Source of the DNA: Escherichia coli
Lineage (GTDB): Bacteria > Pseudomonadota > Gammaproteobacteria > Enterobacterales > Enterobacteriaceae
NCBI RefSeq assembly: GCF_045037415.1
Contig: NZ_CP173438.1
Length of the DNA: 64,000 nucleotides
Reading direction: 5' to 3' (one strand)
A program made the position numbers. Positions 59,301 through 62,300 of this stretch are shown piece after piece; positions within the stretch are counted from its first letter, which is position 1, and each line of letters begins with the position of its first letter.

Positions 59301-62300
59301 CTGCTTTACGAAGCCGCCTGGTCTTATCGTACACCTGCAAAAGTTGGGGCATGGCTTATATATTACCGACCGGACTCTGTAACACAATATTCCAAAGATA
59401 TTGCATGGAAAGCTCAACAACGATTGTGTTCTCGTTACCGAAGTCTGACAGCAAAAGGGAAAAAATCACAAGTAGCCATTACGGCGGTGGCTCGTGAGTT
59501 GACTGGATTTATGTGGGATATTGCACTTGCTGCCCAATCATCATTCAGTCAGCAGAAGCAAAATTAAACCCTGAAGCAGTCAGACACGGAATGAGTGATC
59601 CTCGTAAAAGAATTCAGGGAAGCCAGAATGCGCTAATACCTGCACGTAGAAAGAGGCCAGCTCACTGCGTAAATCGTCATGGGGCTAAAATCCCCGAATA
59701 AGAGTTTGTAAAATCCAAGATACAGTCTGACTGTTTCAGGTTCTTTAATCCGCGATATAACGAAGCTCCCGGAGCTGCGTAAGGTCTTTTTGGGCTTAAT
59801 ATTTGACAAAGGTCATAAGAATTCTTTTTCCCGAGACAGACGGCACGAAGCGCTCTTTCTGCTGTGTTATTGTCCGCCTCCGCCAGACCGTCATCACTGT
59901 AATAACAGAGGGCGTCCCACTGATTCAGGACATAGCTGAACGCTTCGCCCAGTCTGGATTTTTTCGACAACGTGCCATTCTTCTCCACCATCCATTCATG
60001 CAGCGACGTCAGTAACGCTTTGCTTCGCTGCTGCCTGGCTGCAAGACGTTCAGACTCCGGTAAGCCCCGTATTTCATCCTCAATGGCGTACAGTTCACTG
60101 ATGCGCTTCAGAGCTTCTTCTGCCGTCGTACTTTTGCTGCTGATGTATACATCGTGGATTTTTCGCCGGGCATGGGCCCAGCACGCAACTTCTGTCAGTG
60201 CACCACCTTCACGTTCGGCACTGAACAGCCGATCGTAACCGCTGAATGCATCCGCCTGCAGGATACCCCGGAAGGGACGAAGGTGTTGTACCGGATGTTT
60301 TCCCTGCCTGTCTGGTGAGTAGGCGAACCAGACCGCCGGTGGCTCTGATGAGCCCGCATTCCGGTCATCCCGGACATACGTCCAGATGCGTCCTGTTTTT
60401 GCCTTTTTTCTGCCCGGTGCCAGCACTTTTACTGGTATGTCGTCAGTGTGAACCTTGCGGGTGTTCATCACGTAACGGTACAGGGCATCATTCAGCGGAG
60501 TCATTAACTGGCAGCACGCGTCAACCCAGTTGGAGAGTAATGCACGGCTCAGTTCGGCACCCTGTCGGGCAAAGATTTCACTCTGACGATACAGTGGCAG
60601 GTGTTCGCAGTATTTTCCCGTTAACACGCGGGCAAGTAATCCGGAGCCCGCGATGCCGCGCTCTATCGGGCGGGACGGCGCTGGCGCTTCAACTATACAG
60701 TCACATTTTGTACAGGCTTTTTTTACCCGAACAGTGCGGATCACTTTCAGGGCGCTACTCACCAGTTCCAGCTGCTCAGCACTGACTTCACCCAGATAAT
60801 CCAGCTCACTGCCACACTCCGGGCAACAGCTTTCTTCAGACTCCAGACGGTGTATTTCACGGGGAAGGTGTGCCGGTAACGGACGACGATGGCGCGACTG
60901 TCGCAACTGGCGGGGAACCTGCGGATCGTCTTCCCACCCACTGTAACGATCGCTGTCCTGTCGGCGTTGATTCAGCAGGGCCTCAGCCTGTTCAACTTCA
61001 CGACGCAGTTTTTCAGAACGGGTACCGAACAGCATCCGGCGCAGTTTTTCTATCTGGGCCCTCAGATGTTCTGTTTCCCGCTCCTCCTCTTCGATCTTTT
61101 CTTCGGCACGTGCCAGTGCAGAGCGCAGGAAGGCCTCCGTCTCTTCAACCAGACTCAGTTGCTGATCTTTCTGACGGAGGGCTTCAGCCTGCTCAGAGAG
61201 TAGCCTTTCCAGCTCAGTGATACGAATGAGGTATTTCCGACTCATGACCGTTTTTATAATCCGGCCATGACATTTTTACAACATTGTCAGTGCATTAAGG
61301 CGGGATGTTTTGGGTTGACGCCAGTCCAGTTTATCGAGGAACATTGCCAGCTGCGAGCGGGTAATGGATACCTTACCGTCACGCACCGCAGGCCAGATAA
61401 ACTGGCCTTCCTCCAGACGTTTGGTGAACAGGCACAGACCATCAGCATCAGCCCACAGGATTTTAATCGTGTCACCCCGTCGGCCGCGAAAGATAAACAG
61501 GTGACCGGAGAAGGGGTTCTCATCCAGCACATGTTGTACCTGTTCACCCAGACCGTTGAAGGATTTACGCATATCAGTAACGCCGGCAACCAGCCAGATT
61601 CGAGTGTCTGATGGGAGCGAGATCATCGTCCTCTCCCGGTCAGTTCACGGATCAACACCGTGAGCAGCTCTGGTGACGGATTTTCCAGCGTCATGTTACC
61701 GTGGCGGAACTCAACTTTACAGGAACTGGCACTGACTGTGCTTTGTGAAGGAGTGGATAAAAGCGGAGTAAGAGCCGCCACAGGCTCTTTCTGCTCATCA
61801 GGCGTTATCTCAACAGGTAATAATTCAACGCCAGCGCCAGAAGAGGTTGTTACCGGAAGACGCCGCGATATACGCCCTTCGTTCTGCCAGAGCCTGAGCC
61901 ATTTGAACAGGAGGTTATCATTGATATCGTGTTCCCTGGCAATACGGGCAACAGAGGCTCCTGGTTGTGAAGCCAGTTTAACCATTTGAAGTTTAAACTC
62001 ATTTGAAAATGTTCTGCGGGGTTCTGCGGGGTTCTGCGGATAATATTTTCTGTTCCATAACAGGTGTCCACTAGTTGAAAAAGTGGGCACCTACGTTACC
62101 AATACTGGCTTAATGGCTACATACGGCGGTCAGTTTACGCTTACAGAAATGTAATAAACACGTCCTACAATTAACTGAAGAGCATGGTGACGGATGAAGG
62201 AAAAAGCAGGAGTGTGTGGTGCCTCACAGATTTCCGACATCATAGCTGTCAACGACGGATGAAAAGCGGCTCTTCCGCAACTTGGGTGGAAGAAAATGGA

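Follow-up and report, generated by a model that had tools for sequence, protein, structure and literature searches.

A Length-Dependent, Hypermutable Decamer Repeat in the tnpA Gene of a Decaying IS682-Like Element at the cnf1 Locus of Escherichia coli

Introduction

Simple-sequence contingency loci, such as those behind slipped-strand phase variation in Neisseria, Haemophilus, and Campylobacter, carry in the 5′ end of an open reading frame (ORF) a tandem tract whose unit is not a multiple of three, whose gain or loss of units toggles the reading frame, and whose length is homoplasic among isolates (PMC11868660). The same arrangement was recognized in a stretch of 64,000 nucleotides from the Escherichia coli contig NZ_CP173438.1 (assembly GCF_045037415.1), hereafter the window, in which a tract of 10-nt units lies at the start of tnpA, a gene of an IS682-like insertion sequence (IS) of the IS66 family found next to the cnf1 toxin locus. 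It is reported here that this tract is a length-dependent, hypermutable variable-number tandem repeat (VNTR) in a decaying IS, and that it was previously unreported, since no account of a variable tnpA tract turned up in the literature searched.

The tract resembles the contingency loci in being a frame-altering tandem within an ORF, with a unit number that is both polymorphic and homoplasic. In contrast to them, it is formed by only 1 to 5 copies of a 10-nt unit, its canonical two-unit state is nearly stable, and its alleles show no bias toward the in-frame state. Moreover, the long tract (typically >5 units) and the gene under fluctuating selection that define contingency loci were not found. 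The gene affected here, tnpA, encodes an IS accessory protein within a dead element, in contrast to the surface and restriction-modification genes of those loci.

The nearest analogue in E. coli is the VNTR of the pks island, in which the 8-bp unit ACAGATAC is repeated 2–20 times in the intergenic region upstream of clbR, and which was reported to influence colibactin expression (PMC7364221). Both are short-unit VNTRs placed in a genomic island of extraintestinal pathogenic E. coli (ExPEC), and their unit number differs among isolates; the decamer tract, however, is intragenic, shifts the reading frame, has far fewer units, and carries no demonstrated phenotype. The level of a transposition protein also hinges on a frame change near the operon start in IS1 and IS3-family elements, which use programmed frameshifting or transcriptional slippage. 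There, the change takes place in the RNA or on the ribosome, at slippery heptamers or A-runs, and is not heritable, whereas the decamer change is made in the DNA. In fact, codon reading between the ATG at 62058 and the TGA at 62001 of the window copy revealed no slippery X XXY YYZ heptamer, and thus no zero-frame heptamer precedes the stop as a programmed –1 frameshift of the IS1/IS3 type would demand.

Regarding the IS66 family itself (IS679, IS682, and ISEc8 type), the window copy shares the tnpA-tnpB-tnpC organization, the ATGA overlap between the tnpA stop and the tnpB start, the GTAAGCG inverted repeats, and the 8-bp target duplication. It differs from those elements by an extra decamer in tnpA and by the insertion of ISEc45 in tnpC. 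Transposition of IS679 reportedly needs all three genes.

Sequence and Variability of the Decamer Tract

The tract was recorded by Tandem Repeats Finder (TRF) as GTTCTGCGGG × 2.9 at 62011–62039, with 100% matches, no indels, and a score of 58. A first-pass annotation of the window had described a perfect triplication at 62011–62040; the triplication is real and perfect, and its length needs correction to 29 nt, since base 62040 is an A and not a G. On the minus (coding) strand, from 62039 to 62011, three CCGCAGAAC 9-mers are found with a C between them, and the tract reads tCCGCAGAAC-C-CCGCAGAAC-C-CCGCAGAACa. In 64 kb of random sequence, a perfect tandem of period 10 and ≥29 nt would be expected ~5e-7 times, and the decamer has no other occurrence within the 64-kb window. 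The tract begins 19 nt past the native ATG of tnpA (62058, minus strand), and this position, together with the NCBIfam IS66 scores, bears out the earlier placement at the start of an IS66 tnpA.

This decamer tract is likely a VNTR and a mutational hot spot, changed by slippage within a dead IS682-like element and left to neutral drift, with no role as a regulator. The evidence comes, in the first place, from the comparison of orthologous loci. Forty-four of them were projected on 4.65 kb of flank plus IS sequence, after masking the tract and taking out ISEc45, which gave 78 variable sites; the loci had been fetched by allele, and hence the resulting table shows homoplasy and not allele frequencies. 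Twelve loci did not differ from the window at any of these sites; between them they carried 2, 3, 4, and 5 units, some having ISEc45 and others lacking it. Similarly, 2, 3, and 4 units were found on a haplotype one single-nucleotide polymorphism (SNP) away from the window, 2 and 3 units on one of the haplotypes at three SNPs, and 3 and 4 units in a haplotype group separated by 38–49 SNPs. Since several unit numbers occur on identical haplotypes, the tract changes faster than one SNP accrues in 4.65 kb, and, as this was seen for more than one haplotype, the same transitions were repeated several times. Separate assemblies of the same strain, on the other hand, agreed among themselves: the three BH100 substrains and p11A/p11B all had 3 units, and the UTI89 records all had 4. 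Such constancy argues against very high switching rates and cannot measure rates.

The distribution of unit numbers was assessed in 5,426 complete E. coli genomes by means of junction-specific queries of 43–73 nt, with 17 nt of flank per side and E-value limits passed by the exact unit number only; earlier identity-band counts, made with 241–281-nt queries, were dropped as unreliable because alignments split at a 30-nt gap and partial matches were counted. Two units were present in 779 records, three in 169, and four in 18, including UTI89, NU14, UM146, UPEC_U013, and NCTC9022. One unit was found in 30 records, all of them plasmids of enterotoxigenic or Shiga toxin-producing E. coli (ETEC/STEC), and the search with 241–281-nt queries retrieved no record with five. 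Nevertheless, the protein predicted for five units (151 amino acids [aa], in frame from the ATG) was matched exactly on 19 contigs, in each case at the cnf1 locus, and the DNA behind it was confirmed to hold five perfect units. Among the index blocks with the window-type protein backbone, 2,171 corresponded to three units, 167 to two, 157 to four, and 19 to five, which means that ~14% had shifted away from three units and that out-of-frame alleles were ~12 times commoner than in-frame ones. No product of 6 or 8 units was on record in an exact look-up with an assumed start codon. Therefore, homologous copies carry 1, 2, 3, 4, or 5 units, as the first-pass annotation had anticipated in supposing that gain or loss of a unit by slippage would shift the frame. 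It had also named the finding that would count against it, a uniform number of three in all homologous copies, and the comparison that it suggested did not give such uniformity.

The one-unit form is a decayed IS fragment adjoining sta1 on ETEC plasmids, and is annotated by RefSeq as a pseudogene. In pB7A_66 (NZ_CP035815.1, 1–6324), for example, this truncated IS682 remnant lies no more than ~2.3 kb from sta1, which codes for the heat-stable enterotoxin and from which it is separated by an IS2 copy and a transposase fragment, an arrangement kept in 30 plasmid records.

Concerning mobility, the contexts shown for the window-type proteins of 2, 3, 4, and 5 units corresponded to the cnf1 locus every time, and no movement to a new site was seen for any allele in the contexts sampled. 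Two apparent cases were discarded. Transposition of a three-unit copy, suggested by five three-unit places in strain SCAID WND1-2021, was rejected because these places correspond to a 17.6-kb segmental amplification; and local transposition of a two-unit copy, considered for locus L030, was rejected because the second IS66-type copy is a different family member, 89% identical and devoid of the repeat. In the SCAID WND1-2021 region (NZ_CP082831.1, 4635000–4684999), the ~17.6-kb unit is repeated several times, with many frameshifted genes, and comprises partial cnf1, ISEc16, IS682, TetR, ISEc52, YybH, and fimbrial genes; it is either a real amplification or the product of a noisy assembly.

Dependence of Instability on Perfect Units

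A second and older insertion of IS682 offered an independent view of the tract. This insertion is very widespread (loci L011 and L046–L057), adjoins genes for an MFS transporter, a ROK kinase, and an N-acetylneuraminate lyase-like (DHDPS) protein, and has its tnpC truncated by another IS66-family element. It carries two perfect units, and its TnpA was found in 14,510 index blocks, against only 14 contigs for the predicted three-unit derivative of the same protein. Of the six places shown for that derivative, three or more lay at the second site, with the three-unit DNA confirmed, and this 2-to-3 expansion is independent of the cnf1 locus. Therefore, the instability belongs to the tract and not to the locus. 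Strain 82.0311, whose coordinates had suggested another three-unit allele of the second insertion, turned out to represent the cnf1 locus and was set aside.

A different situation was observed in a diverged haplotype of the cnf1 locus, in which the second unit carries one mismatch (CCTGCAGAAC, P-C-R-T). This interrupted allele accounted for 2,244 blocks, and no three-unit derivative of it was on record in a protein look-up with an assumed start codon. Altogether, a tract of two perfect units hardly ever changes, one of three is highly unstable, and a single interruption is enough to freeze it. Instability that depends on length, and freezing by interruption, are the textbook behavior of slippage-prone repeats.

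Other roles suggested for the tract by its sequence were also discarded. A subterminal array of binding sites was rejected, since the 9-mer CCGCAGAAC is confined to the tract and has no copy at the other IS end, its single one-mismatch match, within tnpC, being at chance level. A σ70-like promoter predicted on the minus strand at 62070–62042, with a start inside the tract, was taken as chance (1 site vs 0.5 expected), and a plus-strand “terminator-like” hairpin across the tract, which rests on G-T pairs between direct repeats, was taken as an artefact. An imperfect 17-nt tandem, AGTTTAAACTCATTTGA × 2.1 (88% matches, 11% indels by TRF), adjoins the tract in tnpA at 61975–62007.

Reading Frame and Start Codons of tnpA

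In the two-unit alleles, the coding strand reads ATG GAA CAG AAA ATA TTA TCC GCA GAA CCC CGC AGA ACA TTT, from which a 141-aa TnpA beginning with MEQKILSAEPRRTFSNEF is obtained. This protein aligned without gaps, from Met1 to the last residue, with the 141-aa TnpA of an IS66-family paralogue (80% identity), and the family-conserved region begins with PRRTFS at residues 10–11, according to the profile match. Because 10 is not a multiple of 3, every unit step shifts the gene body relative to the ATG; as computed for 1 to 6 units, both are joined with 2 or 5 units only, and fall out of frame with 1, 3, 4, or 6. In the window, which carries three units, the ATG frame reads MEQKILSAEPRRTPQNIFK and ends at the TGA at 62001–61999. 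The ORF nevertheless looks intact because an alternative frame is open upstream to the GTG at 62090 and the CTG at 62063. Consequently, the idea that three copies preserve the reading frame had to be abandoned: the canonical state has two units, and the third is a +10 insertion that brings a stop after 19 codons from the ATG.

The start codon annotated by RefSeq follows the unit number, and is the ATG in two-unit alleles, a CTG five bases upstream of the ATG in three-unit alleles, and an ATC in four-unit alleles. For example, the RefSeq starts assigned by the Prokaryotic Genome Annotation Pipeline (PGAP) at L001 4098 and L002 4120 (window 62063 and its equivalent) are a CTG and an ATC, which hide frameshifts of 10 and 20 bp. 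By this means, thousands of RefSeq assemblies of cnf1-positive E. coli show an apparently intact tnpA; these CTG- and ATC-started alleles are 10- or 20-bp frameshift variants of the ATG-started gene and call for an annotation correction, and they illustrate that annotation pipelines can conceal frameshifts behind non-canonical start codons.

The course of events that best fits these observations would be as follows. The tract would act as a hot spot at codons 7–13 of the tnpA of an IS682-like element that has long been fixed, within a pathogenicity island of ExPEC, at the side of cnf1. Two perfect tandem units, encoding S-A-E-P-R-R-T, are already present in the native gene, and misalignment of units would add or remove whole 10-bp units, probably by replication slippage, with unequal exchange between units as another possible route. 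Alleles of 2 or 5 units are in frame, and those of 1, 3, or 4 units out of frame; in the window, translation from the ATG ends after 19 codons, at best trace amounts of TnpA would arise from upstream non-ATG codons (GTG, CTG), and the translational coupling to tnpB would presumably be lost. Instability would rise with the number of perfect units, and one mismatch that interrupts them would be enough to suppress it. The extra unit of the window would be without further consequence, because tnpC was already destroyed by ISEc45.

Some points weigh against this explanation. Recombination between alleles, and not fresh slippage, could be behind part of the homoplasy. Neither the index blocks nor the loci fetched by allele were phylogenetically controlled, and their frequencies reflect clonal expansion as much as mutation; likewise, the look-ups for six-unit and expanded interrupted forms hinge on gene callers picking the assumed start codon. 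We infer the “off” state of the three- and four-unit alleles from start-codon quality alone, and none of the three frames is closed upstream of the tract, with the ATG at 62058 in one, the GTG at 62090 and CTG at 62063 in another, and a GTG at 62071 in the third. Hence, some TnpA may be made at any unit number. The three open frames are probably due to chance, the distances being short; still, no unit number is provably null.

These open frames speak for a rival explanation, which is unlikely all the same: that the variation is a harmless change in N-terminal length, the three- and four-unit alleles making functional TnpA from alternative starts (the GTG at 62090 or the CTG at 62063 with three units, the GTG at 62071 or the ATC with four) and the leader peptide being dispensable. 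In its favor, a start-type codon exists in each frame, the family-conserved part of TnpA begins only downstream of the variable part, and RefSeq annotates both alleles as intact. Nevertheless, reading the sequence before the GTG at 62090 and the GTG at 62071 revealed no Shine-Dalgarno-like sequence, and E. coli reportedly initiates only very poorly at CTG and ATC, according to initiation measurements on all 64 codons. In addition, the ATG placed 5 nt downstream of the CTG would draw ribosomes into the dead frame, and the paralogue starts at its ATG with identical length. Judging by these start codons, the alleles of three and four units would make little or no TnpA.

The Host Element and the Question of a Switch

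The assignment of the host element to the IS66 family was confirmed by tnpA (HTH), tnpB, and tnpC (DDE) in a row, all of them above the NCBIfam cut-offs (Table 1). The ends of the element are intact, and its terminal inverted repeats have 25-nt arms that are 88% complementary. The window copy is inactive, with its tnpC split by ISEc45 and its tnpA out of frame from its own ATG, and, because of the split tnpC, it is unable to make transposase.

Table 1. Coordinates of the IS682-like element, its decamer tract, and adjoining features in the window
Feature	Position	Strand	Evidence or remark
tnpA (IS66-family accessory protein, HTH_Tnp_1), with a frameshift due to the extra unit	61623..62058	-	NF047595, 84.8 bits vs cut-off 74 (score computed on the two-unit reconstruction)
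Native ATG start codon of tnpA	62056..62058	-	RefSeq start in two-unit alleles; in frame with gene body at 2 or 5 units only
Decamer tract, 2.9 units	62011..62039	-	TRF, sequence, and unit census; canonical IS has two units, window copy one extra
Premature TGA from native ATG, three-unit allele, after 19 codons (MEQKILSAEPRRTPQNIFK*)	61999..62001	-	
Upstream stretch open in three-unit gene-body frame	62061..62090	-	GTG 62090-62088; CTG 62063-62061 (RefSeq start)
tnpB (IS66 family accessory protein)	61276..61626	-	NF033819, 118.7 bits vs cut-off 50
tnpC 5′ part (DDE transposase, 475 codons), cut by ISEc45	59820..61245	-	NF033517, 389 bits vs cut-off 180; break point placed by alignment to intact copy L001
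ISEc45 (IS110-like), 1,446 bp, within tnpC	58374..59819	+	Alignment; RefSeq annotation of identical loci
ISEc45 377-aa transposase ORF	58434-59567		
tnpC 3′ remnant	58185..58373	-	Alignment to L001 6341-6529
Left terminal inverted repeat	62120..62144	-	GTAAGCG from 62144
Right terminal inverted repeat	58155..58179	-	CGCTTAC to 58155
Target-site duplication (8 bp), left copy	62145..62152	-	ACATTTCT
Target-site duplication (8 bp), right copy	58147..58154	-	ACATTTCT
IS3-like remnant between IS682 and cnf1	62383-63246	-	
HTH-domain fragment between IS682 and cnf1	63340-63792	+	

In the first-pass annotation, the tract was proposed as a possible copy-number switch for transposase expression. In its full form, this would be an evolved contingency switch, by which IS682 would toggle its copies, reversibly and heritably, between competent (2 and 5 units) and silent (1, 3, and 4 units) states, limiting host damage while keeping reactivation possible. 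Such a switch is quite unlikely, even if the native coding sequence includes the tract and each step alters the frame, the changes on identical haplotypes are recurrent and go both ways, an in-frame five-unit allele exists, and expansion took place at the second insertion too. In fact, unit numbers are no less variable in copies with a tnpC already interrupted by ISEc45, the ~12:1 ratio given above is in favor of out-of-frame alleles, no allele was seen at a new site in the contexts sampled, and the canonical two-unit tract is nearly inert, as the 14 contigs against 14,510 blocks at the second insertion indicate. Moreover, known contingency loci have tracts much longer than 2–5 units, the number did not change among re-sequenced substrains (BH100 ×3, p11A/p11B), and a paralogue 89% identical in DNA has no repeat at all. 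The split tnpC, the lack of new sites, and the excess of out-of-frame alleles likewise tell against the simpler proposal of the first-pass annotation, whose fallback of a neutral duplication came closest to the truth, with the difference that the duplication breaks the frame and is recurrent.

The more restricted idea of a frame toggle built into the DNA of IS682, which with at least three perfect units would move copies between silent (3 and 4 units) and competent (2 and 5 units) states on epidemiological time scales, has very little probability. If it were true, copies with an intact tnpC, such as those of strains 4/0, F11, and AVS0750, would be heritably reactivated or silenced, and E. coli, in which phase variation based on repeats is regarded as rare, would harbor a phase-variable transposition module driven by a repeat. 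Finally, the chance that the unit differences are sequencing or assembly artefacts, produced by collapse or expansion of the repeat, is negligible: some carriers are indeed noisy long-read assemblies with many frameshifted genes, such as SCAID WND1-2021, but the tract does not exceed 49 nt, a length that any read spans with ease, each unit number was met in tens to thousands of independent assemblies, with agreement inside lineages, and sequencing is not known to err by whole, exact 10-nt units.

Neutral slippage in a dead element thus remains the preferred explanation, and the tract offers a clean natural example of repeat behavior, with no new regulatory mechanism shown. It also provides a fast-evolving and easily scored marker (2–5 units) in the cnf1/hly island of ExPEC, including ST131 virotype E, ST95, and ST73. 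This marker varies where 4.65 kb of flank are without SNPs, and could sharpen the tracing of outbreaks or of island transfer.

Genomic Surroundings of the Element

The name “IS682 family” is the RefSeq label on close relatives of the window element. Furthermore, the IS that adjoins cnf1/hlyCABD in GI-pheU of ST131 virotype E was named IS682, and was described together with ISEc16 (PMC8386418). The order cnf1, HTH remnant, ISEc16 remnant, and IS682-like element was common to all fetched orthologous loci; in the window, cnf1 itself lies just past position 64000, outside the analyzed stretch. The sequences that separate IS682 from cnf1 are an IS3-like remnant, labeled ISEc16 by RefSeq, with an intact orfA and a truncated orfB, and a frameshifted fragment of an HTH-domain gene.

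Where present among the loci L001–L045, ISEc45 occupied the same position of tnpC. Genomes with an identical 4.65-kb SNP haplotype differed in having or lacking it, as if it had been inserted repeatedly at one specific site or lost precisely. According to the gene calls, its position in L044 is 38 bp away from that in L040.

The stretch 54717–56346 of the window holds another IS3-family element, with orfA at 55163–55501 and orfB at 55528–56346. It adjoins a shortened YybH-like gene (54717–55175), whose product has 152 aa here and 182 aa in strain 4/0. In the SCAID WND1-2021 genome, a similar element beside a shortened YybH gene corresponds to ISEc52 according to RefSeq. Other tandems recorded by TRF in the window were a 9-nt unit, CATGCCGCC × 4 (88% matches), at 13608–13643, and a 26-nt unit repeated twice at 30867–30918.

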